Shown: one piece after another, positions 71 through 31,098 of the stretch
Position numbering within the stretch: the stretch's first letter is position 1
How the letters are laid out: each line of letters begins with the position of its first letter
Virus record (IMG/VR): IMGVR_UViG_2778261033_000015
Direction: 5' to 3' (one strand)
Source: a virus
Lineage: Duplodnaviria > Heunggongvirae > Uroviricota > Caudoviricetes
DNA length: 39,669 nucleotides
The notes under the pieces: model-generated
Databases searched by the model: none
The model's input: only the letters and a program-made list of their open reading frames with translations
What the model was told of the DNA's origin: nothing
Translations under genes and position numbers: made by a program

Positions 71-301
71 ATGGCTGTGCTTCGTACGTTACCGGGCAGA
101 ATCAAAACTCTGAACACCCGGCGGATAAATGTCCTGAGGGGGGAACAGCGTCGTGTCAGTGGCAGTGCCCGGGTTTCCCTCAAACGTCGTATCTGGCGGA
201 GGGATGCCGGACACTGTTGTCTCTGTAGACGCGTGGTTGACCTTTGTGACAGTGAACTCGATCACCGCATTGCACTTCAGTTCGGTGGTGGTAATGAGGA
301 G
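71..301 (+). pseudogene. HNH endonuclease gene, 5' fragment, disrupted by prophage insertion
   Basis: ORF reads ...HCCLCRRVVDLCDSELDHRIALQFGGGNEE up to 301 (C-x2-C, DH, GG of an HNH motif); the rest of the motif (TNLWTLCTECHRQK) resumes in frame at 39598. The ORF tail 302..412 is phage end sequence. Start at 71 not verified. Confidence 0.6.
297..301. repeat. Target-site duplication, left copy (AGGAG)
   Basis: AGGAG at 297-301 and 39593-39597 is the only 5-mer shared by the two junctions; deleting the element plus one copy restores the HNH reading frame. Confidence 0.55.
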
Positions 302-384
302 TATAGCGCGGCGATTTTTTTGATACCGATTTGCATTTCATTTGATACCGCTGAAAAACGCCGATACGCAACTTATTTGATACT
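302..384. repeat. Right-end (attR-side) subterminal repeats, candidate transposase binding sites
   Basis: Three direct copies of TTTGATAC(C/T) at 319-327, 341-349, 376-384; the same motif occurs three times in inverted orientation at the other end (39422-39576). Confidence 0.5.
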
Positions 385-429
385 AAATCGGCGCTTTTCT
401 TTTGAGTTTTAGAATGAGTTTTTAAGCGC

Positions 430-1167
430 TCATTCACTCTCTTTCAAACCAGTTTTAACTGTTTGTGGTTTTGGGTAAGGCTGGACTTTGAATAGCTTTG
501 TGTTGAGGCGTTTTCTGGCCCTCTTGTTCAGAAACCGGATGTAACGAAACTGTCGGAACTTATGCACACTGGCTCTGTCGATATTAGCCCTCAGATGTTC
601 ACCTCGTTGTCCGCCTCGTTTAATGGCATTCCTGCAAATCTCGTGATACCACTCGCCATCAAGTTCATAGAATGTTGATTCATGGCTGCCTACATAATCA
701 AAATTGCTTGCCTGATACACGACACCAAGACAGCCACAACGCTCATCTGCAAACGACTGAACCCACTGTACCTGCGGATAAAGCTGCCTGATTAGCTTGA
801 GCGCGTAACTGATTGCCCTTGATTCGGAGTTTCTCGGCATACAGTCATGCATCCATAGCCGGTTAAGCTCCATATATTCTCGGTTCTGCGTACCCGTTAC
901 GACGCGTGCACCACTGTTTGGGTTAAGGGCGTAACCCCATTGCATTACGCCAACAAGTTCCCGTTCTGAAAATATACCCAGATGAAGGTAGGAATTATTT
1001 ACGAAACGGTGGCTGTAATGTTTATTGACGATAACCAGTCTGGCCAGCCAGCAACTTATTGTCTCAACCCGCAACTCACGGGAGCCATAACCAACGATAT
1101 TGTCGTTATAGCGAATAAGTTCAGGCGTGCTGATGATACGGGATGTGACTTGCTTTCTGTTCCCCAC
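430..1167 (-). CDS. mom: DNA modification protein Mom
   Basis: 245-aa ORF with the Mom-like ...NKHYSHR... segment; last gene before the phage end; its start overlaps the stop of the upstream com-like ORF as in Mu. Confidence 0.8.
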
Positions 1168-1321
1168 GACAGGATTTCCTTGTGTATGTGGGGTGCTCTG
1201 TGGCGCTCGGAGATGTGATTTGATTGAGGGTTTTACTGCGCGGACATTTTACTTCCAGATAACTGAAACTGGCCCGTGCCAGTAGCTTATTGCAGTGTCG
1301 GCACCGTATGTTTCGATACAT
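1121..1321 (-). CDS. com: Com, zinc-finger translational activator of mom
   Basis: ...[29 protein letters not shown]... resembles Mu Com (IRCKNCNKLL...EIRCPRCK); overlaps mom start. Start set at internal Met (1321); the ORF extends to 1366. Confidence 0.75.
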
Positions 1322-1359
1322 GACCGCATAACCTCCTGCTTTGTTGTTGATGCCTTTCT

Positions 1360-1395
1360 CATGCAATCGATCGACAAAAACGATCGATTCGATTT
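1360..1395 (-). promoter_or_regulatory. Candidate Dam-methylation-sensitive regulatory region upstream of com/mom
   Basis: Palindromic ATCGATCGACAAAAACGATCGAT with two GATC sites (1369-1372, 1382-1385), 13 bp apart, about 50 bp upstream of com; Mu has a GATC cluster in the equivalent place. Confidence 0.45.
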
Positions 1396-1594
1396 GTTTA
1401 ATTGATACAACAAATAGATTGAAAAGTCATCAACAATGATTCAGGGAGGTGATTATTTACTTAAAGAAAACGAAGAGTTAGGTGGTGAAAACGATCATAA
1501 AATGATCATTTTATTGACTTTTTATACAGTGAAGGTAGGATCACGCGTATATGTAGTATGTTTCAAATCAACAGGATACTACATAAAAGTGAAA

Positions 1595-1620
1595 CCCAGC
1601 ATAGCTGGAACTATGCTGGG
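1595..1620 (-). terminator. Candidate intrinsic terminator (minus strand) insulating com/mom from upstream transcription
   Basis: Perfect 10-bp stem CCCAGCATAG/CTATGCTGGG with 6-nt loop; on the minus strand it is followed by TTTCACTTTTAT. Confidence 0.3.
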
Positions 1621-1742
1621 TCAATCTGTAAAAACTTGCATCAATGCTTTACTTCGAGCTCGTGGCGTATCCTATGATATTCCCCGGTCTCCTGTAAAGC
1701 AGAGATGCATAAAAAGGAGATCTTTATCATGGATGAAAGAGC

Positions 1743-1900
1743 CTGTTTGCCCTGCCTGTAAGACTCCCTTACAGCTCATCTATCGCCGTTCTCGATCTCA
1801 AAATGGCAAGACATACAAACCCAAAAATGCTTCCTGTTTCAGGATGCTGATATGTCCTGCCTGTTCTCCCAGGAGGGAAAATACACAAAACGTGCATTAA
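1743..1900 (+). CDS. Small zinc-ribbon protein (hypothetical)
   Basis: 55 aa with CPAC...(29 aa)...CPAC; strong Shine-Dalgarno AAGGAG at 1724-1729. Opposite strand to the phage genes; could be spurious. Confidence 0.3.
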
Positions 1901-1938
1901 CAAACTCACCCGGCAGGGAAACCTGCCGGTCGGTATTG

Positions 1939-2184
1939 TTACATCATAGTACCGTCAGTTCCGGGCTGAACCGGCTCTGGTTGCTCTACGGGTTGAGGAT
2001 CATTTTCCGTGCTGTTTTCAGCCGGAGAACGGCCAACCATTCGGGCCAGCACTTCATCAACATATGCGTCGATTTGTGCCTCAAAATCCTTGCGAACCTG
2101 CGCCTTCAGCACGCGGTTCACTTCTTCAGAATAAAGTGCCTGTTTGACAAGCTCTTCAGTAACCGTGCCTTTAATCTCTGGCAT
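1939..2184 (-). CDS. Hypothetical 81-aa acidic protein (cargo island)
   Basis: ORF with strong RBS (AAGGAG, 7 nt before ATG); acidic, Pro/Glu-rich C-terminus. Confidence 0.5.
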   Translation of the reverse strand: MPEIKGTVTEELVKQALYSEEVNRVLKAQVRKDFEAQIDAYVDEVLARMVGRSPAENSTENDPQPVEQPEPVQPGTDGTMM

Positions 2185-2219
2185 GAATATTCTCCTTTTG
2201 CAGGTATATTGCCCCGTTA

Positions 2220-2402
2220 TCAGAGCGGGGTCGGGTCGTTTGGGGATGACGGTGCCTGTGCTGTTTTACTGAGTTTTTCAGCTGCCGCATCATCAATTTT
2301 ACGGCGAATATAATTTCTGATGACCTTATAACCACCGCTCACCAGATATAACGCACTGACCACAGCGCAGAAATAAAGCAGCATTGTATGAACGAATGTC
2401 AT
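2220..2402 (-). CDS. Hypothetical 60-aa small membrane protein (cargo island)
   Basis: RBS AAGGTAAGG before ATG; N-terminal hydrophobic helix (LLYFCAVVSALYLVSGG) followed by basic tail. Confidence 0.5.
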   Translation of the reverse strand: MTFVHTMLLYFCAVVSALYLVSGGYKVIRNYIRRKIDDAAAEKLSKTAQAPSSPNDPTPL

Positions 2403-2548
2403 ATAACCTTACCTTTGATATTGACTACATAATTCGTTATCGGGTAAAAACATCGAAGCGACTGATAACCACTCCTTCGGGAGTATTTTTATTTTCCTTT
2501 ATGGGTTAGGTAGCTCCCGCCAGCCATATCATGACCGGCGGGATTTTT

Positions 2549-4588
2549 TTATTCTGTTACCGCTTTTTTCACTTCCACCACAATGCTGTCAATCAGCACC
2601 GGGTAAGTTGCATTTTTTGTGATATCCGTTACGCGGAGTTTGTCCACCGGGAAAGTTCCTACTGGTGACTGCGTCAGGGTAAACGCGGCACCATCCTGAC
2701 CATCAATAACCGGAATAACCTGAAGGCTGTTATTTCCTGCAAAACGGAAGGCCAGCGTATGCCATTCATTATCAAATGCACCAAAGGTTCCCAGTTTCTG
2801 GTTATTTGTTGCCACTTTTGCATTGTGGTACATCACATTCAGGTCTTTTGCGTCTGTCTGGATGTAGAACGATGCCAGCAGATTATTCCCTGCATCCCCT
2901 GTCAGGGTGACACCCTGCGGCAGAGAGGAAACCGGCCAGTAAAGCCCCATGACATACTGGTTTGCCACCAGGTCGCCAGGTACTTTAAAACGACAACTGA
3001 TTAAACCACCATTTTTCAGCAGTTCAGCACCAGTACCGGCATCATGATCCAGATACCAAGATGATTTACCTGTTTCCTTGGTCAGTTTCATTGCCTTACC
3101 ACCTGTGCCTCCTGCATCACTGATAATTTCAGCTTTACCGCCAGCCGGCTCCCAGCCCTGGGCTTTCAGATTTCCTTCTGACTCACTGACACGATAAGAC
3201 AGCAGTGTTGTGGTTACTGCTTCAGTTTCTGAAGGTGACGGCACTGGTGCTTCAGTTTCAGAAGATGGAACATCGGCTTTTACTGTGGTTCGCCCCGCAT
3301 GAGTCAGAACTGCCGTGGCCAGACGGTCGGAAATAATCCCACGACGTGCCCATGAACTGAAATGGCTGGCCCGGTCCGCAGATGTCCAGGTGGCGGCACT
3401 GTTACGCCACGTTGAGCCGTAATAACCAATGGATTCAATATCCGGGTCTTCTGCCGGATTGTTGGTGGGTACATTCGCGTCATTTTCATCTGTCATTAAT
3501 GGAACGAAATGAATGTTTTTATCTGTTTTGTTTTTGTAGCCGCCATAGATTGCCTGGTATGCCGGTTCATTTTTCTGTTTCCAGAAATACGTGGTATCGC
3601 CACAAATCCACGGAACGCCAGCAGCACTGCCACCGGTACACTGTTCCGCCTGTTCAGCCAGGTCTGCGCGGAATTTTTCCACCATCGCCAGAAACAGCGC
3701 GGAATGCTCCGTCGGCTTCGCATCAATATCAAACTCGCCCTGCATCCACACCACAGCAAGCAGGCGGTTTTTCGGGTTCTTCGCCAGTGCCGCTTTTGTC
3801 CGGCTGATTAAGTCCTTATACAGCGGCTTATCCACACCCCAGCGGGCTGAGTCCTCTGAAGCACCCGTGCTGTCACTGTACGTGCCGTCAGCACCCGCCG
3901 TGAATGCAGAACCACCACGGCAGCAGGGAACCAGCAGAATCCCCGCATCTGCCGGAATAAACGGCAGCAGTTTTTTGGCAATGTGAAGCCCCTGACCCAC
4001 GGTGCCATATTGCCCTTTAGCCACATCCGCTTTCGGGTGATTTTTTCCACTCATATCCTGCACATCATGCAGACAGTGGTCGGCCAGAATGATGTCGTTA
4101 TACTGACAGGCTTTACCTCCCGGCGTGACTGTACTGCGACGGGCTAACTGCATAATACGCGGTTCGGGGCGGTCATATGTCTCCGGCAGTGGCAGACCTT
4201 CACCGTAAGCCATACCGTTTGACTGACCAGCAAGAACCACCACGTAATACCAGGAAGGGGAGCTGGAAGCAGTTTCATTTCCTGACGGACGGGTATGTGT
4301 TTCAGCATTATCCCAGTCTGACGGTTCAGCAGTACCGGCAACATCAGCACTTAACGGAATGACCGCACCAATACCCGCTCCGGTAATTTCCACACTCGGA
4401 TCACCGGATACTGGCCTTACCCACAGGCAATCCCGTGTATTAAAACTGATGAGACAGTCAGCAAATGTCATTCCTCCTTTTGTTTCGGCCGGAGGAAAGG
4501 GAGCCTCAAGAAATGCCGCTGTACCACCGGAAACTTTAACAGTAAAGTTTCCGGGCATTGATGATAGTTGAACCCATTTGGACGTCAT
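2549..4588 (-). CDS. SASA/SGNH-family carbohydrate O-acetylesterase with C-terminal lectin-like domain (prophage cargo; resembles NanS-p type sialate O-acetylesterases)
   Basis: 679-aa ORF with GQSNGM (catalytic Ser block), WMQGEFD (SASA block II) and a ~220-aa beta-rich C-terminal region (...NEWHTLAFRF...). Sits between gin and com/mom, where Mu has no gene. Confidence 0.75.
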   Translation of the reverse strand: MTSKWVQLSSMPGNFTVKVSGGTAAFLEAPFPPAETKGGMTFADCLISFNTRDCLWVRPVSGDPSVEITGAGIGAVIPLSADVAGTAEPSDWDNAETHTRPSGNETASSSPSWYYVVVLAGQSNGMAYGEGLPLPETYDRPEPRIMQLARRSTVTPGGKACQYNDIILADHCLHDVQDMSGKNHPKADVAKGQYGTVGQGLHIAKKLLPFIPADAGILLVPCCRGGSAFTAGADGTYSDSTGASEDSARWGVDKPLYKDLISRTKAALAKNPKNRLLAVVWMQGEFDIDAKPTEHSALFLAMVEKFRADLAEQAEQCTGGSAAGVPWICGDTTYFWKQKNEPAYQAIYGGYKNKTDKNIHFVPLMTDENDANVPTNNPAEDPDIESIGYYGSTWRNSAATWTSADRASHFSSWARRGIISDRLATAVLTHAGRTTVKADVPSSETEAPVPSPSETEAVTTTLLSYRVSESEGNLKAQGWEPAGGKAEIISDAGGTGGKAMKLTKETGKSSWYLDHDAGTGAELLKNGGLISCRFKVPGDLVANQYVMGLYWPVSSLPQGVTLTGDAGNNLLASFYIQTDAKDLNVMYHNAKVATNNQKLGTFGAFDNEWHTLAFRFAGNNSLQVIPVIDGQDGAAFTLTQSPVGTFPVDKLRVTDITKNATYPVLIDSIVVEVKKAVTE

Positions 4589-4687: not shown

Positions 4688-5248
4688 TTATTTTTCCGAA
4701 ACGCTCGCAGGATAATAACGATAAAGGGTTGAAAGGCCGATATCAAAAATAAGTGCCACCTGTCTTCGACTGACACCCCCGGCCAGTAAACGCCCGACCT
4801 GCTCGTATTGTTCCTGCGTGAGACGACGGGGTCTGCCGCCGGTTCGTCCCCTTTCACGGGCAGCTGCAAGACCAGCCCGTGTCCGTTCGACAATTAATTC
4901 ACGCTCCATTTCTGCCAGCGCACCCATTATGTGAAAAAAGAAGCGCCCCATGGGGGTTGACGTATCAATGTTGTCAGTAAGACTACGAAAATTTATCCCC
5001 TGTTGCTGTAATTCATCTGTCAGCGCAACAAGGTGGCGCATACTGCGCCCCAGCCTGTCCAGTTTCCAGACCATCAGTGTGTCACCGGGTTTTAGTTTCT
5101 TCAGTGCCCGCTTCAGTCCCGGCCGCTGTGTCGTTTTACCACTCATTTTATCTTCAAAAATCTGCTCACATCCTGCACATTCCAGCGCATTTCTTTGTAA
5201 ACCTGTGTTCTGGTCATTTGTTGATACGCGTATATAGCCAATCAGCAT
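4688..5248 (-). CDS. gin: Serine recombinase, DNA invertase Gin
   Basis: MLIGYIRVSTNDQNTGLQRNAL...GRPRRLTQEQ... near-identical over long stretches to Gin/Hin/Pin/Cin invertases; adjacent to the invertible segment. Confidence 0.95.
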   Translation of the reverse strand: MLIGYIRVSTNDQNTGLQRNALECAGCEQIFEDKMSGKTTQRPGLKRALKKLKPGDTLMVWKLDRLGRSMRHLVALTDELQQQGINFRSLTDNIDTSTPMGRFFFHIMGALAEMERELIVERTRAGLAAARERGRTGGRPRRLTQEQYEQVGRLLAGGVSRRQVALIFDIGLSTLYRYYPASVSEK

Positions 5249-5303: not shown

Positions 5304-5327
5304 TCCCTGAAACCTCGGTTTACGGGA
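5304..5327. other. gix-like crossover site (gin-proximal)
   Basis: TCCCTGAAACC-TC-GGTTTACGGGA: imperfect palindrome matching the Mu gix half-site TTCCTGTAAACC; 2-bp core TC. Confidence 0.55.
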
Positions 5328-5673
5328 TACTGTAAACAGGGCCGCGAATGCCCTGCCATCGAACGGAGCGGCTGTTGCAGCGAATAAACTCGCCACTCCA
5401 AGAAATATTAATGGTGTCCCATTTGACGGAACGCAGGATATAAATATTACATCGGGGATGACGCAGTCTGTGGCTGACTCACGTTATGTTCAAAGCATTC
5501 GAAGAGGTTCAAGGTCAACGATTGGAATGCAATATAATATTTTTGAGGTTCCTGACGGATGCGTACTTACAGGGCTTGATGTCGCTGGTGATGGTAATGC
5601 AACGGTAACCGCATATTATCGACCTGTTCAGTTTCTGATAGATGGTTCGTGGAAAACAGCTTCCAGCGCATAA
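5316..5673 (+). CDS. Silent alternative tail-fibre C-terminal cassette (S'v), no start codon of its own
   Basis: Plus-strand frame reads GLRDTVNRAANALPSNGAAVAANKLATPRNINGVPFDGT...YYRPVQFLIDGSWKTASSA, parallel to the C-terminus of the expressed fibre; open from the gix site onward. Confidence 0.65.
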
Positions 5674-6308: not shown

Positions 6309-7220
6309 TTACACTGAACTTACCGTTCTCCAGGCATTATTAATATAAATCTGAACCGGGCGATAATAGACCCCACCGATATTGTCCGCAGACCGGGAGC
6401 CGGTTTCCTGCACGTTAATTCCGGAAAGCATACAACCGGAAGGTGCGCTGTAATTCCATGACATTTCATTGCCTCCGGGTGAATGATAGCTCTGTGCTCC
6501 AAGCTGAACATTCTGTACATACCGGCCATCTGCGGTTGACTGCGTCATTCCTGACGTGATGTTGATATCCAGCGTTCCGTCAAAAGGAACACCATTAATA
6601 TTTCTTGGGGTGGCGAGTCTGTTTGCTGCCACGGCGGTTCCACCCGATGGCAGGGCATCAGCAGCCTTATTTACCGTTTCCCGTAAACCGACGTTATCGA
6701 TAAAAGCGCCTTTATCCGGAATGTCTGCGCCGTTCTGCTCCCTGCGCAGGTAACGGTTATCACCTTCGCTTTTGCTGTAAACATCCAGATTATTACGGGC
6801 GGTTCCCGCATTCTCCAGGTCGGCAAGGTTCTGATCCTTCGCCAGAGCATTAACGTCACCGGGACCAAGACTGTTTTTTGTGGCAAGCGCCCCAAGACCA
6901 AGATAACCACGGGCAAGACGCTGGGCTTCCGCACCGGCATCAGCAATTTCTTTCAGGTTGTTTTTCCGGGAAAAGGCATTCGCAGCGATAATGGCTTTAA
7001 TGGACAGCGTAAGCTGGTTTAACTGCGCCTTATCCGGCTGAATACTGGCTTCAGCCAGAATATTCAGCAGTTCGGCCTGGAGAATATTCAGCCAGTCCTG
7101 ACCAATCCAGCTGATACCTTTTTGTCCGTCACCTTCGGTAAACCAGGTGGTGGTATTACTCTGCGCCGGTGCCAGCGCAGGCATATTCGCCACGCCGGAA
7201 TTATTATCAACATGGAACAT
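6309..7220 (-). CDS. Tail fibre protein (S-like; constant part plus currently expressed variable cassette Sv)
   Basis: 303 aa from ATG at 7220 (RBS GAGGAG, TAATG overlap with upstream gene); N-terminus ...WFTEGDG... and C-terminus ...YYRPVQIYINNAWRTVSSV resemble P2 H / Mu S fibres; the gix site lies within it. Confidence 0.8.
   Translation of the reverse strand: MFHVDNNSGVANMPALAPAQSNTTTWFTEGDGQKGISWIGQDWLNILQAELLNILAEASIQPDKAQLNQLTLSIKAIIAANAFSRKNNLKEIADAGAEAQRLARGYLGLGALATKNSLGPGDVNALAKDQNLADLENAGTARNNLDVYSKSEGDNRYLRREQNGADIPDKGAFIDNVGLRETVNKAADALPSGGTAVAANRLATPRNINGVPFDGTLDINITSGMTQSTADGRYVQNVQLGAQSYHSPGGNEMSWNYSAPSGCMLSGINVQETGSRSADNIGGVYYRPVQIYINNAWRTVSSV
6679..6702. other. gix-like crossover site (within tail-fibre gene)
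   Basis: TCCCGTAAACC-GA-CGTTATCGATA; inner arm and core are the exact reverse complement of the inner arm and core of the site at 5304-5327. Confidence 0.55.
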
Positions 7221-15397: not shown

Positions 15398-16900
15398 TCA
15401 CAAAATGAAACGGATCTGTGCTGCCAGGAAGCGGAACTGGTTAACCAGATCCGGCGTGCATAACACGTCAAGACGGTTTCGATCTGACGCATTACGCTCC
15501 ACAAGCAGATTCTTTTTAAAGGTGTCCAGATTTTCGACCAGCCCGAGTTCCACCCACTCTTCACCCAGCGAAATTAACTGAAGCTTCATGATCTCCGGCG
15601 TCACGATATTCTGACCGGCACGAACGGGCGTCCCGTCATCAGCCAGTTTATGGCGCGGAAAACGTTGTGTGATAAAAGTACGCAGGGAATAACGCAGCCA
15701 GGAGAGGGTGTAGATGGTTTCCACATCCAGATAGCTGGGATCACTTTCGCCGTACACGTTCTGGCGATACATGGTCACCTGACGTTCGATCTGAACCACA
15801 TCACCGGCAGCCACACTGACCGTGGCAATCCCTCCCCACAGCAGACTGTTACGCTCTTCACGCGTCAGACGATCGGCCGGAGCCGGGGCCATGCGTGACG
15901 GAAGCGCCAGCGTCTGAAGCGGACGCGCAGGATCTGCTCCCAGAGAGGGTGCACAGGTGGCACAGACCGCCGCTGCCCAGAGGTAATCCGGTTCAGGGGC
16001 TTTGGGAATGGATGTGCAGGTCGCCAGAAAATCATTGCGTTTTGCCCCGAATGCCTGCACCTCACCAAACGTGCCGGTATGTGCCAGCCACAGCACGCCG
16101 TCAGACATTTTGGCCGGTCCCCAGCGTTTCAGAAGCTCATCACTGATGATTTTCAGGTTTGCATCATCCTTATAGGGCATGACGACATAGTTGTACTGGC
16201 GATCGCCCATACCCGCCACGCTTCGGGTGATATCCGGGTTAGCCGCTTTTTGTTTCGGATAGGCTATAGCGACCTGTATTCCTTCCGGGGTTGCTTCCCC
16301 GTCGTGATAGTTCAGGCGCACATCATGAACGGAGCATTCACCGGTAAAGCGGGCGGTGATCCCCAGAGACCCTTTCAGACCTGCGCCATTATCACCACTT
16401 CCTGCACCAGAGGAGGCCGTGAAGGGCGCGTCAGGATCGGCATTGATCAGCGCGGCCAGCTCGTCGGTCAGTTCTTTGCCTTTCTTACCTTTTGGTGCCG
16501 GGAGTGTATAACGCCGCCCCCCCACGCAGGCATAAACAATCCCGTCACGGGTGACCGTTCCGGTCAGATTCATGGCCGCAGCCGTTGCCTGTCCGGTGCC
16601 GTTCCCCTGAGCAATGGCATACAGTTCAGCATCAGGATTGATGGCGATAAATTCCGCCACCATCAGGGCAATCATGGAGCCGCGCCCCCAGAGTTCTGTT
16701 GCCTGAGACGCACGGGTGATCCTGACCGGAACATCCAGAACACCGGCACCGTCCACGGCATTCTCTTTCATTCTCGCCTGACCAAACAGCAGCACACACT
16801 GACGCTGTGCCGGAGTGCCGGTGACAGCCATGGAGTTATTAAACTCAACCTCAATCAGCGGTATACGGCGGTCATTACCGATCCCGTCAAAATTAATCAT
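15398..16900 (-). CDS. Contractile tail sheath protein (Mu L-like)
   Basis: 500-aa ORF of sheath size, upstream of the tube gene. Confidence 0.85.
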   Translation of the reverse strand: MINFDGIGNDRRIPLIEVEFNNSMAVTGTPAQRQCVLLFGQARMKENAVDGAGVLDVPVRITRASQATELWGRGSMIALMVAEFIAINPDAELYAIAQGNGTGQATAAAMNLTGTVTRDGIVYACVGGRRYTLPAPKGKKGKELTDELAALINADPDAPFTASSGAGSGDNGAGLKGSLGITARFTGECSVHDVRLNYHDGEATPEGIQVAIAYPKQKAANPDITRSVAGMGDRQYNYVVMPYKDDANLKIISDELLKRWGPAKMSDGVLWLAHTGTFGEVQAFGAKRNDFLATCTSIPKAPEPDYLWAAAVCATCAPSLGADPARPLQTLALPSRMAPAPADRLTREERNSLLWGGIATVSVAAGDVVQIERQVTMYRQNVYGESDPSYLDVETIYTLSWLRYSLRTFITQRFPRHKLADDGTPVRAGQNIVTPEIMKLQLISLGEEWVELGLVENLDTFKKNLLVERNASDRNRLDVLCTPDLVNQFRFLAAQIRFIL

Positions 16901-17142
16901 TGCGGTTTCTCCTTATCGGATGCCGGTTGGGCGACCGGTTTTTCTGTCGCAGTCGTTGCATCCGCAGATACAGCCGGAGCCTCTTCAGCGGCTTTTTCAG
17001 CCTGAATGACATCGCCGTCATCAAGACGCCGACACCAGAACGGCGTAAAGGGCTTTTCCTCCCCCTCCTGTGCCAGCGGGCGCATTGTGTCGGGATCACG
17101 AATCAGGCGTCCCGGCGCGGGTTTGATAAAGATGGTTTTCAT
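16897..17142 (-). CDS. Small conserved protein (Mu gp38-like, DUF2635-type)
   Basis: MKTIFIKPAPGRLIRDPDTM...WCRRLDDGDV pattern; 4-nt overlap with sheath gene. Confidence 0.55.
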   Translation of the reverse strand: MKTIFIKPAPGRLIRDPDTMRPLAQEGEEKPFTPFWCRRLDDGDVIQAEKAAEEAPAVSADATTATEKPVAQPASDKEKPQ

Positions 17143-17703
17143 TTACAGTTCCTCCGGCGGTTCGACCGCCGTTGTCGTGTTCCCCGGCAAATCAATATGT
17201 GCCTCAAACGGCGGCGTACCGGGCGGCTCCACAAAGGTTTCGTAATGACGCAGGAAGTCGTCCAGCGAGCTGGTATCGGTCAGCGGTGCGATCATTTCCT
17301 CGCAGGAGAAATAAAGCGCATACATCACCGCACCACTGTCCGCCTGGGTTTCGGTGTAACCGTTGACCGCCTTTTCAAAGTAAAGCGGTGAGGTTTTTTC
17401 TGTTCTGAAGCCGTTAAGCACGGCAATCAGCCGGGCCACAATCTGATACAGTCCGGGACGGCTGGCCTCACGCCCGTTGAGCATGTCGCCGATGACGTAG
17501 AACACCCAGTGACTGACCAGGCGACCACGGGTACGGCCTTCACCGGCACCCAGCCAGGCAACGTAGATCGCCGGGGCGTTAATCAGCATGGTGCGCAGTA
17601 CGCTGTCGCTCCAGTCGCCGGGATGCGTGTCAACAGACACCAGTTCATTCCCGAAATACTCACGGATACGGGCGATGTATGCCTGTTCGGTTTCCGTAAT
17701 CAT
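17143..17703 (-). CDS. Head-tail joining protein (Mu gp37-like)
   Basis: 186-aa ORF, Mu-like position. Confidence 0.6.
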   Translation of the reverse strand: MITETEQAYIARIREYFGNELVSVDTHPGDWSDSVLRTMLINAPAIYVAWLGAGEGRTRGRLVSHWVFYVIGDMLNGREASRPGLYQIVARLIAVLNGFRTEKTSPLYFEKAVNGYTETQADSGAVMYALYFSCEEMIAPLTDTSSLDDFLRHYETFVEPPGTPPFEAHIDLPGNTTTAVEPPEEL

Positions 17704-18119
17704 ATGAAGCCCTTCTGGTTGCGCCCGAATACCGCTGCATCAGACTGAACCTGTGGTAAATCCCCGGATTCAGGGGCCGCACCGTTCGTATCCACACCGA
17801 CCGGCACATTGCCGTTCATGACATCTTTCAGCCAGGCCAGCGCTTCACGGTAACGGTCACGCGCCTGATCGGAGGCTCGCTGATCGCACAGGTAATAAAA
17901 GGCAATCGCGCAACAGTGCTGAACAAGAACGGCCGGAATAACCTCCAGCGGCAACGTGTAACGGGCGGACAGATAGCTGTCGATAAGGGCTGACGCATCT
18001 GTCAGCGCCCGGTTCAGCTTGCGCGTGTCCGGCTCATCCGAACGGGGCACAGCCAGTAACGGCCTGAGCAAATCCTCGCGGTAACGCGCCCGCATATCGG
18101 TTTCAGTGGCGTAATTCAT
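17700..18119 (-). CDS. Head-tail connector/completion protein (Mu gp36-like)
   Basis: 139 aa, MNYATETDMRARYRED... N-terminus typical of the gp36 family. Confidence 0.6.
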   Translation of the reverse strand: MNYATETDMRARYREDLLRPLLAVPRSDEPDTRKLNRALTDASALIDSYLSARYTLPLEVIPAVLVQHCCAIAFYYLCDQRASDQARDRYREALAWLKDVMNGNVPVGVDTNGAAPESGDLPQVQSDAAVFGRNQKGFI

Positions 18120-18508
18120 GCACGGGCCTGTTCCGCTTTGTTACCGGTCTTTTTCCGGGGAGCATCCTGTCCGGCTTCGGCTTCGGCTTCGGCTTCGGCT
18201 TCGGCTTCGGCTTCGGCTTCGGCTTCGGCTAAATCTGTACCGGCCACTGCATGAACCACACCCGCCACGCTCCCCGCATCATCAGCAGACGTCTGTAGTA
18301 TTCGCACAGTGAGGCATGGCTCCTCCTCCAGTCGGGCAAGCTGCTCCGGGGTGACCTCAACCTGCTGACGTCCACGCGTGAACAGGAACCCCGCACGACG
18401 AAACGCCGAACGACTGCAACGCACTTCTGCCAGCACCGTGACAGAATTGTCACCACTGACCTGAAGACCTGAATCATCTGTTGCTGCCACAGTGTGATGT
18501 TCATTCAT
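18116..18508 (-). CDS. Hypothetical head-region protein (Mu gp35 position) carrying a (Glu-Ala)10 tract
   Basis: 130-aa ORF between the major head and gp36-like genes; contains ...LAEAEAEAEAEAEAEAEAEAEAG... encoded by the hexanucleotide repeat. Confidence 0.6.
   Translation of the reverse strand: MNEHHTVAATDDSGLQVSGDNSVTVLAEVRCSRSAFRRAGFLFTRGRQQVEVTPEQLARLEEEPCLTVRILQTSADDAGSVAGVVHAVAGTDLAEAEAEAEAEAEAEAEAEAGQDAPRKKTGNKAEQARA
18172..18229. repeat. Perfect tandem hexanucleotide repeat (GGCTTC) x ~9.7 inside a CDS
   Basis: ggcttcggcttcggcttc... read directly from the sequence; in frame, encoding (EA)n on the minus strand. Confidence 0.95.
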
Positions 18509-18551
18509 ATTTGCCCTCCGCAGGGGCCGGGCCGTAAGCCCGGCTCACCGT

Positions 18552-19499
18552 TTACAGATAATCCGCGACAACCAGCTCCAGCTTACCCTTCATCTCGTTA
18601 GAGACGGTTGCGTTTCCGTCTGCGAACAGTTCACGCTCCAGCAGCTGCACCGCCTGTTTTTCCAGCGAGGTGGGGACAACAATATGGGTGGGTTTAATGC
18701 CGAGTTTGCGGCCACCGTCAGCGGTAAATTCGCGCATGGCTGACCAGCCGTGCCACAGTGCATCCAGCGTCAGCGGTGACTGCATCATGTAGGCCATCTG
18801 CCAGAAGCCGTAGCCCACATTGCGACGGGCGGATGCACCAAACACAAATTCGTTATCGGTGAATGCGCGACCTTCATCGACTTTGGTCTGGGCAACCAGT
18901 TCAGCCTTACGGCGATCCTGATAAATCAGCGGTTTTACCGCGCGGGAGCAGTCAAGCAGATACCAGGCCGGACCGCTGTAATCAGCCTGTGCGCCGACAG
19001 AGCCGGTTTTTGCCACAAACATATTGCTGACCATCTGCGCATCCCCGGAGCCATCCACTTTGGGGTAAACCGGATGTTCGGTATCAAAGAAGTTCTGACC
19101 GTCATAGCAGGCCGCACTGATCCCGTCACGCAGGGCAGCAAAGACCAGCTCATCCGGTTGTACCGCCGCAGCGCGCCCCATCTCCTGGAACAACGGGGAA
19201 TAAATACCGAGGTTGTCGTCTTCGAAGTCATCGCGGCTAATGGCGACAGTGCCTTCAAAAGTTTTGTTCACGATGGCATAGCCATAGGCTTTCATCTTCT
19301 CGATGACGCGGGAGCCGATCCACTCACGGAACTGCGGGAACTGCCCCAGCCAGCCGTAGGTGTTGGATTTCGATGTGGAGGGCACGGTCATCGCAATTTT
19401 TTTATACTGCGACGGGGCCATGGACATCCCGGCCTGAAAATCAGAACGGTAGCCCGTCATCAGGGCTGTGATCATCGCCGGTGTAATCGGGGTAGGCAT
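18552..19499 (-). CDS. Major head subunit (Mu T-like)
   Basis: 315-aa ORF directly downstream of the I-like protease/scaffold gene. Confidence 0.85.
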   Translation of the reverse strand: MPTPITPAMITALMTGYRSDFQAGMSMAPSQYKKIAMTVPSTSKSNTYGWLGQFPQFREWIGSRVIEKMKAYGYAIVNKTFEGTVAISRDDFEDDNLGIYSPLFQEMGRAAAVQPDELVFAALRDGISAACYDGQNFFDTEHPVYPKVDGSGDAQMVSNMFVAKTGSVGAQADYSGPAWYLLDCSRAVKPLIYQDRRKAELVAQTKVDEGRAFTDNEFVFGASARRNVGYGFWQMAYMMQSPLTLDALWHGWSAMREFTADGGRKLGIKPTHIVVPTSLEKQAVQLLERELFADGNATVSNEMKGKLELVVADYL

Positions 19500-20623
19500 T
19501 ATTGCATTTCCTCTTTCATTTTCAGGAACTCGGCTTCGGTTTTACCCAGCAGTTTGGCGGCCGCGATATCTTCAGCCGACAGCGCAGCGGTGGCAGTCTT
19601 TTTATCCGGCACGGTCACGGTGTCGGTCTGAAGAGAGGTCAGGGCCGCAACCGGCTGGCGGGCGTCAAGCTGTGCAGAAAGTGCCGCAACGCCAATCTGC
19701 CCGCCCAGTTGTTCCAGATAGCCGCGTTCGCTTTTGAAGATGCGCCCTTCGGATTCAGCCTTGTCCAGCACCTGCTCCAGCGTGGTGCTGCCGTGCTGCG
19801 CCGACAGCGCAACGTATTCGGTACGCAGGGCGTTATACGTTTCAACGGGCACGTATTTCGTCAGATCAATAATGCCGCCAGCCGGTGTGCCTTTTGCGGT
19901 TTCCAGCTCTGCCGACAGACTGGCGACCTGTGTTTTCAGGTTGTCGTGTGCATCCGCACGGGTTTTGATCCCGGTGAGGGCAGACAGCGCCGCCGTGCCC
20001 AGCTCCGGCGTAAATTCGTCACCGTCAGCCACGGTCAGACCGAGCGCCGTCAGCAACTGGCGTAATTGCTCATTCATGGAGGTATCCTTTAAAGGAGGGT
20101 TTAAGGCGTTATAAAGGTCATCCGCCGACAGCGCGGCGACAGGATTCATGCCGGTCAGACCGGGGTCACCGGTAATAGCCAGCATCCGAAGTTCGACAGG
20201 TTCGCCGGTGTTCTCGTCATAGCCAATCACCGGTGAAAACCAGGGGAATTCGTTATTACGCAGATGTTCAAGGGCCGGAGGGTTCCACTTCGGGCGCACC
20301 TCGAAGCCACGCTCTTCACTGAAGCGAAAATTCTCCGGTGAGGCCATCACAAAACCGGCAGCCGGTGCCTGATGCCCCTTAATCAGGGTCTGGTGGTTGT
20401 AGTCAATTTTCACCGGCTGATTGAGCGCCACAACCCGGGATACCATGCGCTCAACGGTCGCACGGTTAATCAGCCAGCCCTCGGCCGGTTTTTCCGGGCG
20501 ACCGTCACGGGCCTTTACCCGACCGGCTGGCATGATCTGACACCAGTCACCGTCCCCGTCTGCGGACAGGCTGATGGCATTCAGAATGGCATAAGCAAGT
20601 TTGGGCGTGTTTTTCGTCTTCAT
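19499..20623 (-). CDS. Head maturation protease/scaffold (Mu I-like)
   Basis: 374-aa ORF with Ala-rich coiled-coil-like C-terminal half; upstream of major head gene. Confidence 0.8.
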   Translation of the reverse strand: MKTKNTPKLAYAILNAISLSADGDGDWCQIMPAGRVKARDGRPEKPAEGWLINRATVERMVSRVVALNQPVKIDYNHQTLIKGHQAPAAGFVMASPENFRFSEERGFEVRPKWNPPALEHLRNNEFPWFSPVIGYDENTGEPVELRMLAITGDPGLTGMNPVAALSADDLYNALNPPLKDTSMNEQLRQLLTALGLTVADGDEFTPELGTAALSALTGIKTRADAHDNLKTQVASLSAELETAKGTPAGGIIDLTKYVPVETYNALRTEYVALSAQHGSTTLEQVLDKAESEGRIFKSERGYLEQLGGQIGVAALSAQLDARQPVAALTSLQTDTVTVPDKKTATAALSAEDIAAAKLLGKTEAEFLKMKEEMQ

Positions 20624-20799: not shown

Positions 20800-21273
20800 T
20801 TAAGGCGTTTCTGTGGCCTTTTTAAAGCGTTTTCTGATTTCGTCCATGATCTCCTGCTCTGCCACCTGATCAAAGCCCATATACGGGCGTGCGCCAATGG
20901 CCGCCGGTCCCGGTGGCATACCAGGCAGGCCACCCCACTGATGAATGGCCGCATAAGGCTCATTTGATCCAATCAGCGCCCAGGTATCGCCATAATCCGT
21001 GGTCAGGCGTCGGGCCAGATCGCCGTTCAGCGTCAGGATTTTGCCGGGCATGTATCCCTTACGGGTACGCCACTTGCGGTAAGGATCTGACCAGTCATGC
21101 CAGCGTTCGCCGTCCGGCTCTTTTTCCTGTTCAAACGCCATTTCTGACGATGACAGAAGACTCGCCGCCACACTGCGGGCCAGGTCTTTCCCTCCACCCA
21201 CAAACTGAAGCCGGGCAAAGACCCGCTGGAGACGCGTAACGTCAACAACGACAGCGGCATCAATGGATGACAT
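20800..21273 (-). CDS. Virion morphogenesis protein (Mu G-like)
   Basis: 157-aa ORF between the F-like and I-like genes. Confidence 0.7.
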   Translation of the reverse strand: MSSIDAAVVVDVTRLQRVFARLQFVGGGKDLARSVAASLLSSSEMAFEQEKEPDGERWHDWSDPYRKWRTRKGYMPGKILTLNGDLARRLTTDYGDTWALIGSNEPYAAIHQWGGLPGMPPGPAAIGARPYMGFDQVAEQEIMDEIRKRFKKATETP

Positions 21274-21394: not shown

Positions 21395-22726
21395 TTAATC
21401 AATATCTCCTTCCAGTACCTCAAGCATTCCACCCCGGATATCCGATTTCAGCTTATCCATATTGATAACCCGGTAAGCATTCACAATCACATCCAGTTTA
21501 TCCGGCTGACGCTTCAGGCTGTACGGCGCATTAACGGCAATCTGCACACTGCTATCCTTACTTTCCACGATATACATCAGATTGTTGTGGCGTTTGTCCC
21601 ACAGCACCGCTTTTGGCTTTGCCAGCATTGCCGGTAATCGACCGAAATCCTCCGGCGTCAGGGCGATACCGTCATTCTGATGTTTCATGCTGTCCGCATG
21701 GAGCACATTTTTACCGCTCATCGCCAGCAGGCGGGCCGGTGGCGTTCCCGTCCGGCTTTCCACCGCCTGCGCAATGCTTTCGGTCATAAAGCCCAGCGTG
21801 CGGATATCGTTACCGCCTCGCCGGGTTTTCATGATGTTTTTTGCCCAGATGCGGAACGCCAGCTGCCGCTCCGGGCTGTTGTTCATCTCCTGCACTACCA
21901 TTTCCCGCAGCGCCGGGCTTTTCACCTCGATCAGTTTACGGATCAACGCCTGGTCTGTGCCGAACGCCGCCGAGCCGGGGTTATATGACCAGCCCACATC
22001 CGGTGTCATGGTTCTGGTGCCATCTGAATATGTGGTCACCGGCATTTCTCTGACTTCTCCGGTCTGCTTATCCACGCCAGCCTCAACATTGCGGGTGGAA
22101 AGATGATCCTGACCGGATGAAACGGATAACCCCATTGCATCCAGACGGGTCTGAGACAATGGCCGGACACGGCAGCGGCAGTTCCAGCCATTGGGTGGGT
22201 AGTGTGTATTCCAGAACGGATCGTCATAGCGGAATACCTGCCCGTTAAGGGCGGAATGCGCCGGGCGGGTGCGGCTGTCCATCACCGCCACATACTGCCA
22301 GAACGGATGCGTGTCCGTGTTGTTCATCATCTGCGTGTAACGCCCGGCATTGTAAGCCACGCGGGTGTTCACGTTGTAAATCAGCGCCAGACGGCGGGGA
22401 CTGCCCAGTTGCACTTCTTCTGCGTTACCGGCGCTGTCCACCACAATCTGCTTTCCCCACCATCCCAGCTTTTGCAGGCGGGGTGTCAGTGTGCGGATAA
22501 ATGCTTTCTGTGAAATCCCCTCATCAACAGCACGCTGCACTTCCGCCTGTAGTGTGGTCAGTACGTCCAGGCGTGCCACTTTTGCCGCCGTGAATGAACG
22601 GGCATGAACATCCGCGTCTGTTTCGAACCAGTTCCAGCTGATATGCGCCCCTTTGGCGCGGAAGTATGCCACCGCCTCTTTTGAGGGAAGCGTGGCGGCA
22701 TAACCTAAATCAATCCCCTGTGCCAT
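21395..22726 (-). CDS. Head morphogenesis protein (Mu F / gp30-like)
   Basis: 443-aa ORF directly downstream of portal. Confidence 0.75.
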   Translation of the reverse strand: MAQGIDLGYAATLPSKEAVAYFRAKGAHISWNWFETDADVHARSFTAAKVARLDVLTTLQAEVQRAVDEGISQKAFIRTLTPRLQKLGWWGKQIVVDSAGNAEEVQLGSPRRLALIYNVNTRVAYNAGRYTQMMNNTDTHPFWQYVAVMDSRTRPAHSALNGQVFRYDDPFWNTHYPPNGWNCRCRVRPLSQTRLDAMGLSVSSGQDHLSTRNVEAGVDKQTGEVREMPVTTYSDGTRTMTPDVGWSYNPGSAAFGTDQALIRKLIEVKSPALREMVVQEMNNSPERQLAFRIWAKNIMKTRRGGNDIRTLGFMTESIAQAVESRTGTPPARLLAMSGKNVLHADSMKHQNDGIALTPEDFGRLPAMLAKPKAVLWDKRHNNLMYIVESKDSSVQIAVNAPYSLKRQPDKLDVIVNAYRVINMDKLKSDIRGGMLEVLEGDID

Positions 22727-29601: not shown

Positions 29602-29894
29602 GCTGTATCAACACTCCTGCGGATATGATAGGTATTATTTTCCCGATCGAGCTGAACCCGATACTCCGGAGGAATCACAAAAATATTAAAACCATCATCA
29701 GTTTTTATTCTTGAGTAGCATTCCCCCTTATGATATCTGGCCAGTGCATTAATCAGAGAAGTCGCAGCCTGCCCAATCAGGTATTTTTTATGAAAAATAC
29801 TGATAACTTTCCGGCACAGCCATCGTGTAATGACGAATGCACCGAAAAAGGATGTGATATATAAATACCAGAACAACTGCGAACTACTGTCCAT
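29598..29894 (-). CDS. Hypothetical early membrane protein
   Basis: 98 aa, N-terminal TM (LFWYLYITSFFGAFVIT); lies in a locally AT-rich stretch. Confidence 0.5.
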   Translation of the reverse strand: MDSSSQLFWYLYITSFFGAFVITRWLCRKVISIFHKKYLIGQAATSLINALARYHKGECYSRIKTDDGFNIFVIPPEYRVQLDRENNTYHIRRSVDTA

Positions 29895-30081
29895 TATCTT
29901 TCTCCTTATTCAGTCTTCTGCGGCATTCGGCACAGTCATCAGGGCTTTCAAATGTATCCGGCTCGCGATTATGAGCCAGATATAACCACCGTCCACATAT
30001 ACTGATATTTTCGCCTGTTTTAAAAAAATGATGCTTCCTGGCCATTAGTGGCCGCGCCCATCCAGCGGGTAGACTATTCAT
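29884..30081 (-). CDS. Hypothetical small Cys-containing protein
   Basis: 65-aa ORF in early operon orientation with Cys pairs (CGRW...CAEC). Confidence 0.4.
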   Translation of the reverse strand: MNSLPAGWARPLMARKHHFFKTGENISICGRWLYLAHNREPDTFESPDDCAECRRRLNKEKDNGQ

Positions 30082-30409
30082 TTGCTTTATCCTCCATGCT
30101 GGACAGAATCATATGTATTAATGTCGGGCGTGGAGATATACGCATTTCATTAAGCGTCTGAAGGGCAGCAACAGCTGCCTGTTTATCGGTGCCTTTGGCA
30201 ATTTCAGCAAGAGAATGCACAATCCATAATGGGCTTAACGCTACGGCTGAATGCAGAATCATGTCATCCATAATAATTTCTGGCATATCCCGTTTGTCAC
30301 ATTCTTTATCCATAAAAGAAACGATTTTTTCTGCATCTTCCGGTTTCATGCCTCCGGCGATGAGAATTTTACGATATTCATAAGACGATCTTAATTCAAT
30401 ACTCATCAT
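30074..30409 (-). CDS. Hypothetical early protein
   Basis: 111-aa ORF, early-operon orientation, coupled to neighbours; no recognisable motif. Confidence 0.5.
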   Translation of the reverse strand: MMSIELRSSYEYRKILIAGGMKPEDAEKIVSFMDKECDKRDMPEIIMDDMILHSAVALSPLWIVHSLAEIAKGTDKQAAVAALQTLNEMRISPRPTLIHMILSSMEDKANE

Positions 30410-30421
30410 TCACCTGCCTGT

Positions 30422-30814
30422 TTAATCAGTTTCCAGTGCTTTGCTACGGGCAACAGCCTCACACTCAAAAAATACCGACTCCGGCACACGCTCCTTTAAT
30501 TCACGAACAAGAAAATCATTAACGAGTTCATGACGTCTTATATTTCTTTCCTTTTCCTCCTGGCGCAATACAGCAAGGCGGTATTCAACAGTCCGGCGTT
30601 GTTTCTGAAAGACAGCTAGTGCTTTTCTGGCAGAGTTACGCAATGTATCATCGCCACAGGGTTCGTATTCAAGCTGAAATTTAATCTCTTCAATGGTTTC
30701 TTTTATTTTTGCCAGCAAGCTAAGACAGTCGCTGATTGTCTTCAGTTTTTCATTATCAATATAACTTCTCACGCATTCACCTCCCGTCATTCCGGTAAAG
30801 CTGAAATATGGCAC
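30422..30814 (-). CDS. Hypothetical early protein
   Basis: 130-aa ORF, helical/charged; no recognisable motif. Confidence 0.5.
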   Translation of the reverse strand: MPYFSFTGMTGGECVRSYIDNEKLKTISDCLSLLAKIKETIEEIKFQLEYEPCGDDTLRNSARKALAVFQKQRRTVEYRLAVLRQEEKERNIRRHELVNDFLVRELKERVPESVFFECEAVARSKALETD

Positions 30815-31098
30815 CAGTGCGTCACCTGTCCGTCCTCATCTTCAAGGCAGGCTCCGGTTTCTTCATCAATAAAAAAGCCTTCATACCCCATATGGCCGAT
30901 GCGCAGTTCCTGTTGGTCACCATACTGAACAATCAGCACGACAGCCTCCATATCAGGCGGGAAAGCATCATTCAGTGAATGCCAGGGATAACCGCGCAAA
31001 TCCCCGAAATAAACACCGGTCAGCGTTCCGCCACAGACCGGCATTCCGACGGCACACACAAGGGGTTCATCTGATTCAACAAATAATGTCGTTATCAT
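30787..31098 (-). CDS. Hypothetical early protein
   Basis: 103-aa acidic ORF overlapping neighbours. Confidence 0.5.
   Translation of the reverse strand: MITTLFVESDEPLVCAVGMPVCGGTLTGVYFGDLRGYPWHSLNDAFPPDMEAVVLIVQYGDQQELRIGHMGYEGFFIDEETGACLEDEDGQVTHWCHISALPE

Follow-up and report, generated by a model that had tools for sequence, protein, structure and literature searches.

The perfect hexanucleotide array in the 39,669-nucleotide stretch of phage DNA analysed here (the window) is most readily understood as a hypermutable, in-frame VNTR, the typing locus EHC-5, carried in the gp35 gene of an Sp18-like prophage of Shiga-toxin-producing Escherichia coli (STEC), where slippage would alter the length of a length-tolerant linker with neutral or nearly neutral effect. 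We put the probability of this reading at roughly 85%. The repeat and its polymorphism are already known under the name EHC-5; what is added here is the gene context, that is, a disordered linker in a single-domain variant of gp35 encoded by a Mu-like prophage. This context (gp35, the Mu-like prophage and the disordered (Ala-Glu)n tail) is not described in the typing paper (PMC10062581). The locus comprises the following features:

18116–18508, minus strand: 130-residue ORF related to Mu gp35 and FluMu HI1506, homologue of ECs_4975 in Sp18 of strain Sakai (PF17891, phrog_3622, 2OUT)
18284–18445, minus strand: predicted folded N-terminal domain with the RRAG motif, residues ~22–75 (AlphaFold2, 2OUT fold match, family alignment)
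18172–18230, minus strand: perfect hexanucleotide VNTR, MLVA locus EHC-5, (GCCGAA)9 plus GCCG of the next unit (Tandem Repeats Finder, direct unit count)
18119–18169, minus strand: short basic C-terminal tail of 17 residues, QDAPRKKTGNKAEQARA (alignment with gp35 of Mu, Edwardsiella, Erwinia and Salmonella; pLDDT <50)
18133–18155, plus strand: EHC-5 reverse primer site, CCGCTTTGTTACCGGTCTTTTTC (exact match, 0 mismatches, 0 expected by chance)
18279–18301, minus strand: EHC-5 forward primer site, ATACTACAGACGTCTGCTGATGA (exact match, 0 mismatches, 0 expected by chance)

Tandem Repeats Finder, run on the 39.7-kb window, reports a period-6 array at 18172–18230 with 9.8 copies, 100% matches, no indels and a score of 118, against 56 for the runner-up array in the window. 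The triplet of units (GGCTTC)3 is unique to this locus within the window and appeared in 0 of 100 dinucleotide-preserving shuffles, which places the array beyond chance expectation. The first-pass annotation had described a perfect GGCTTC microsatellite inside a head-region gene, and in this it was correct; the (Ala-Glu)10 tract that it proposed is one pair too long, a direct read of the coding (minus) strand giving (GCCGAA)9 and then GCCGGA, which translates to (Ala-Glu)9-Ala-Gly at residues 94–113, hence nine pairs and not ten. All units of the array are identical at the codon level. A plus-strand ORF at 18118–18312 also spans the repeat, with a predicted (Arg-Leu)n product; we treated it as a by-product of the repeat.

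Both published EHC-5 primers match exactly around the repeat and would yield from the window a 169-bp amplicon bracketing the array; by this match the repeat is the MLVA marker already in use for routine surveillance. EHC-5 belongs to the Japanese MLVA scheme for EHEC O157, O26 and O111 (Izumiya et al., 2010; primers in PMC10062581, S5 Table). Most of the Japanese O157 isolates typed in one study score 0 at this locus (no amplicon) and the rest are variable (PMC10062581), a pattern that fits a repeat located on a mobile element. Fragment analysis gave values of 2, 3, 5, 6, 7, 9, 10, 11, 12, 13 and 14 (PMC10062581, S2 Table), and by our own count from that table roughly a quarter of the listed strains have a non-zero value. 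A pair of isolates, CEC18128 and CEC18136, agree at 16 other loci and differ at EHC-5, with 5 versus 9 (PMC10062581). Polymorphism and null alleles among EHEC are thus seen both in the MLVA table and in the genome search described below.

The window and prophage Sp18 of E. coli O157:H7 Sakai are collinear and share ~99% identity over 29 kb, with two regions unaligned; the window carries an Sp18-like, Mu-like prophage of STEC, which extends from about 302 to 39593. The unaligned regions are an early-region segment (29608–31092) and the repressor-end region (38731–39420), the remainder being 98–99% identical. Their divergence suggests mosaic exchange at both places, and the phage is probably of a different immunity type. 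Between the invertase and the com/mom genes, at 2549–4588 on the minus strand, lies a gene for a 679-residue cargo protein that corresponds to Sakai ECs_4993, with a sialate O-acetylesterase (SASA) domain (E=6.5e-12) and DUF6645 (E=2.4e-69); PADLOC returned no match for it. We take it to resemble the prophage-borne NanS-p esterases of EHEC. Two inverted arms of 182 nt (5311–5492 and 6514–6695), 79% complementary and 1021 nt apart, adjoin a serine-recombinase ORF (4688–5248, minus strand) and enclose tail-fibre and fibre-assembly genes, so that the segment 5311–6695 looks like an invertible host-range region of the Mu G-segment kind. The Sakai homologue of the repeat-bearing protein, ECs_4975, is otherwise the same but has 8 units to the window's 9. 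Sp18 itself is predicted to be an intact prophage, and efficient packaging of its DNA has been reported (PMC2669165); eight units are thus compatible with phage function at least as far as packaging.

The repeat-bearing ORF can be assigned to the gp35/HI1506 family on both domain content and gene position. FluMu_N (PF17891) covers residues 36–72 with 35.2 bits, above the Pfam gathering score of 25.8; the protein matches phrog_3622 (E=7.7e-81), annotated as function unknown, and HI1506 (PDB 2OUT; E=1.6e-4), the sole relative with a solved structure, which is also matched on fold. Mu gp35 and the window protein share 55.6% identity over residues 23–58. The gene lies between those for gpT and gp36 in a Mu-like morphogenesis operon, and its stop codon overlaps the gp36 start (ATGA). 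The position between the major head and gp36-like genes, as given in the first-pass annotation, stands on the PF10124 and PF07030 genes that flank the ORF. The block reads as follows:

21395–22726: MuF gene, Mu-type morphogenesis block
20800–21273: gpG-like virion morphogenesis protein gene, Mu-type morphogenesis block
19499–20623: gpI protease/scaffold gene (PF10123), Mu-type morphogenesis block
18552–19499, minus strand: Mu gpT-type major head protein gene, upstream neighbour (PF10124, E=6.6e-119)
17700–18119, minus strand: Mu gp36 head-tail adaptor gene, downstream neighbour (PF07030, E=3.5e-35; phrog_195, head-tail adaptor)
17143–17703: gp37 gene, Mu-type morphogenesis block
16897–17142: DUF2635 gene, Mu-type morphogenesis block
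15398–16900: tail sheath gene, Mu-type morphogenesis block

Between the gpT stop and the gp35 start, at ~18517–18558 on the minus strand, a GC-rich RNA hairpin is predicted (8-bp GC stem, -23.9 kcal/mol, z = -2.0, without a U-run), and the GenBank record of Mu has a predicted terminator at the equivalent place; taken together, these suggest that gp35 may be expressed below the level of the capsid protein. The same record labels gp35 a head-to-tail connector complex protein. We consider gp35 most likely to be a low-abundance accessory of head or neck morphogenesis. Searches for functional clues returned little: the N-terminal 93 residues, used as a single-sequence query against 1.84 billion representatives, recovered 14 proteins only, too few to be informative; a protein search from the Edwardsiella homologue recovered 2, and the family was recovered by profile search instead. 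Literature searches on HI1506, on ECs4975 and on MLVA with Mu-like found nothing useful. The exact 130-residue protein is absent from a collection of 15 billion proteins, which makes cluster membership unusable for counting alleles.

Structure prediction divides the protein into one folded domain and a long disordered remainder. An AlphaFold2 run on a 25-sequence family alignment gave pLDDT 83–90 for residues 21–70, with predicted elements E25–38 and E41–52 (a β-hairpin), H54–61 and E66–73; R38, G40 and L66 are invariant in the family alignment. The pLDDT falls below 50 for residues 77–116, 119–124 and 127–130, covering the repeat and nearly all of the tail, and the N-domain is, by prediction and alignment, the only conserved and structured part of the window gp35. 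The flexible acidic linker anticipated from the DNA alone is consistent with the disorder predicted for residues 77–116. A Foldseek search of the PDB had HI1506 (2OUT) as its best match with a probability of 1.00 and B. subtilis YqbF as a weak one (probability 0.75, rmsd 2.2 Å over 52 residues), the latter carrying no functional information; no solved decoration, scaffold or connector protein was matched in the PDB. In BFVD the fold search found only uncharacterised small phage proteins or family members, and the matches to DUF7210 were uninformative on function.

In the family members from Mu, Salmonella, Erwinia, Mixta and Edwardsiella, the N-domain leads through a linker into a helical C-domain of ~50 residues; Pfam assigned no domain to the C-terminal half of any two-domain relative, and a tandem repeat was found in none of the members examined from these five sources. 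The C-terminal three-helix domain, present in the Mu, Edwardsiella, Erwinia and Salmonella proteins, is absent from the window gp35, in which only 56 nt of the gene follow the repeat. With the C-domain replaced by (AE)n and a basic tail, the window gp35 is a single-domain variant of the family. Sp18-type proteins as a group are without the C-domain; in them, (AE)n is followed by QDAPRKKTGNKAEQARA or by a variant three residues longer. An NMR study of HI1506 reportedly described two domains joined by a linker of ~30 unstructured residues, with basic patches on both that were suggested to bind nucleic acid. If so, one might speculate that the basic tail is a minimal substitute for the second domain.

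The distribution of the locus was investigated in 5426 complete E. coli genomes. A query of 1801 bp around the repeat matched 234 of them, the majority STEC, and identity was at least 99% in 104 of the 235 matching records; overall, the locus is found in 228–234 of the 5426. The hits vary in length in steps of six bases. Lengths were surveyed with a 401-bp query in 57 of the 229 matching records, sampled at even spacing; its span showed 25 different lengths, with offsets from -40 to +39 nt. Offsets were multiples of 3 in 54 of the 57 records and multiples of 6 in 37, the other three records being end-trimmed alignments; offsets divisible by 3 and not by 6 are most simply attributed to a group of alleles with a basic tail extended by three residues. 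Eight loci were fetched for counting units; one failed the flank pattern used for this purpose, and direct reading of the others gave 4, 13, 14, 15, 16, 18 and 20 GCCGAA units, with identical flanks each time. Protein clusters reach down to (AE)1 and also include interrupted alleles with AG, VE, SE or KA, so that the overall range across E. coli genomes and protein clusters is 1 to 20 units.

The most telling case of a change in unit number comes from a clonal series of cattle strains. In strains 113, 118 and 121 the prophage occupies one common chromosomal site, and over ~40 kb, comprising the whole prophage and its flanks, there are 0 mismatches; the sole difference is one gap of 6 or 12 nt in the array, the strains having 14, 15 and 13 units respectively. 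Across the series, 14 units is the commonest count (10 genomes), with 13 in three genomes and 15 in one. Identical head-to-tail units, with whole-unit alleles in otherwise identical DNA, are what a slipped-strand VNTR should present. The first-pass annotation had called the array prone to slippage, expected changes to stay in frame, and proposed a comparison of related prophages, allowing that an identical copy number in all of them would speak against it. That comparison bears it out: copy number differs widely, and in whole units, among close relatives, and both the two-codon unit and the 54 of 57 offsets that are multiples of 3 agree with preservation of the frame.

Several further observations concern the records themselves. 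Some genomes carry two to four copies of the repeat-bearing prophage region, one of these copies being on a plasmid, and the Stx-converting phage records LC727895 and LC727881 contain an inserted Mu-like phage with the gp35 repeat gene; in such strains a PCR-based EHC-5 call could be ambiguous. Among the database entries are numerous partial proteins ending within the repeat, 82 of them in P0055 alone (P0062 and P0069 are listed alongside), which points to contig breaks at the locus in short-read assemblies. Clusters P0052, P0054 and P0073 have frameshifted tails, and P0085 is a chimera with the first 41 residues fused to a PF10076 protein.

Broken assemblies raise the question of whether the length differences themselves could be sequencing or assembly artefacts, given that many short-read contigs break at or near the repeat and that partial proteins such as those of P0055 end within it. 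This is scarcely credible: whole-unit differences with perfect flanks are found in closed genomes, strain 97-3250 was assembled twice independently with equal repeat length, which argues that length differences are not assembly noise, and the same polymorphism is seen by independent PCR fragment analysis (PMC10062581). A phase-variation switch was also considered and rejected, since a two-codon unit keeps the frame and 54 of 57 records have offsets divisible by 3, the rest being trimmed alignments; the array has neither the frame nor the promoter-spacing behaviour of such a switch. The first-pass annotation suggested a capsid decoration or scaffold protein with the repeat as its length-variable linker, and the gene does directly follow that of the major head protein, a place where some phages encode decoration proteins, as exemplified by the minor capsid protein gp39 of the Mu-like siphophage JBD30 (PMC11445458). 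However, the capsid reconstruction of Mu, with a local resolution of 3.2 Å, contains no cement proteins, and gp35 is nowhere resolved in the cryo-EM work, which suggested that it is possibly connector-related (PMC11915804). Scaffold and protease are encoded separately by the PF10123 gene (19499–20623), the predicted fold matches HI1506 and, weakly, YqbF and no solved decoration protein, and the hairpin between gpT and gp35, annotated as a terminator in Mu, suggests expression below that of the capsid protein. We therefore regard a decoration or scaffold linker as very unlikely.

A more serious competitor to neutrality, which we nevertheless judge unlikely, is that repeat length is tuned adaptively: the length of the acidic (AE)n spacer would set the reach of, or the electrostatic shielding between, a basic N-domain and the basic tail, and slippage would generate functionally different gp35 variants, differing for example in DNA or neck interaction, in particle stability or in escape from a defence that senses gp35. 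In favour of this, an acidic tract followed by a basic tail stands where relatives have their second domain, and both domains were reportedly proposed, in the HI1506 NMR study, to bind nucleic acid; long pure arrays persist in many lineages, and at least one more family member (P0086) has a low-complexity charged tail. Against it, alleles range widely, from 1 to 20 units with no clear mode, which is what relaxed constraint predicts; variation occurs within clones where nothing else has changed, as it does at the other, neutral MLVA loci of O157; repeat length has no known phenotype; and the use of the same codons in all units points to recent slippage rather than selection on the protein. The narrower proposal, in which (Ala-Glu)n is a tunable acidic spacer or shield determining how far or how strongly the basic tail acts relative to the N-domain, for example on packaged DNA or at the neck, seems to us decidedly doubtful. 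Were it true, phage populations would, through slippage, be inherently varied in particle properties or in how visible they are to host defence.

Under the preferred reading, that of a slippage-driven and largely neutral VNTR, unit number would change by slipped-strand mispairing during replication of prophage or phage DNA, and because each unit is two codons no change in copy number can shift the frame. The linker of Mu gp35 reads TLAEAGG and that of the shortest E. coli alleles TDLAEAGQD; the array has therefore probably expanded from one GCCGAA-GCCGGA pair, encoding part of a single Leu-Ala-Glu-Ala-Gly motif already in the linker of Mu gp35. The product would be a floppy acidic spacer between the N-domain and the short basic tail, its length free to drift under little or no constraint, so that variation would be neutral or nearly so. 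We infer neutrality only from how wide the range of alleles is and from the disorder predicted for the tract; repeat length may possibly have a modest effect on function. Since up to four prophage copies occur per genome, exchange between Mu-like prophages by recombination, rather than slippage, could account for some of the differences among lineages.

The value of EHC-5 is chiefly practical, in that it already discriminates EHEC outbreak strains. A carrier that is transposable, Mu-like and sometimes present in several copies explains the frequent null alleles, and EHC-5 may change through gain, loss or duplication of the prophage as well as through slippage. For the protein, the region after the N-domain tolerates any number of Ala-Glu pairs from 1 up to 20, and also the absence of the second domain, which narrows the part of the conserved Mu gp35 that can matter to the N-domain.

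Placed beside known systems, the window repeat and EHC-5 are the same locus with no difference at the DNA level, absent without the prophage and highly polymorphic where present. The protein resembles Mu gp35 and HI1506 (2OUT) in its FluMu_N domain with RRAG, in the position of its gene between gpT and gp36 and in the unstructured linker after the N-domain; it differs in that those proteins have their own helical C-domain of ~50 residues, whereas the window protein has (AE)n and a 17-residue basic tail in that place. The hexanucleotide loci of O157:H7 (O157-3, -9, -10, -17, -19, -25 and -37) likewise have 6-bp units and whole-unit changes of the slippage type, and they separate near-clonal isolates (PMC3768571; PMC10062581). 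Unlike these, EHC-5 rides on a transposable Mu-like prophage and so may be absent, occupy a variable chromosomal site or be present in up to four copies per genome. With the phase-variable contingency loci of Neisseria and Haemophilus, built on simple-sequence repeats, it has in common localised hypermutation by slippage in a short coding repeat; in contrast to them, its 6-base unit never loses the frame, so that there is no ON/OFF switch and protein length alone varies.
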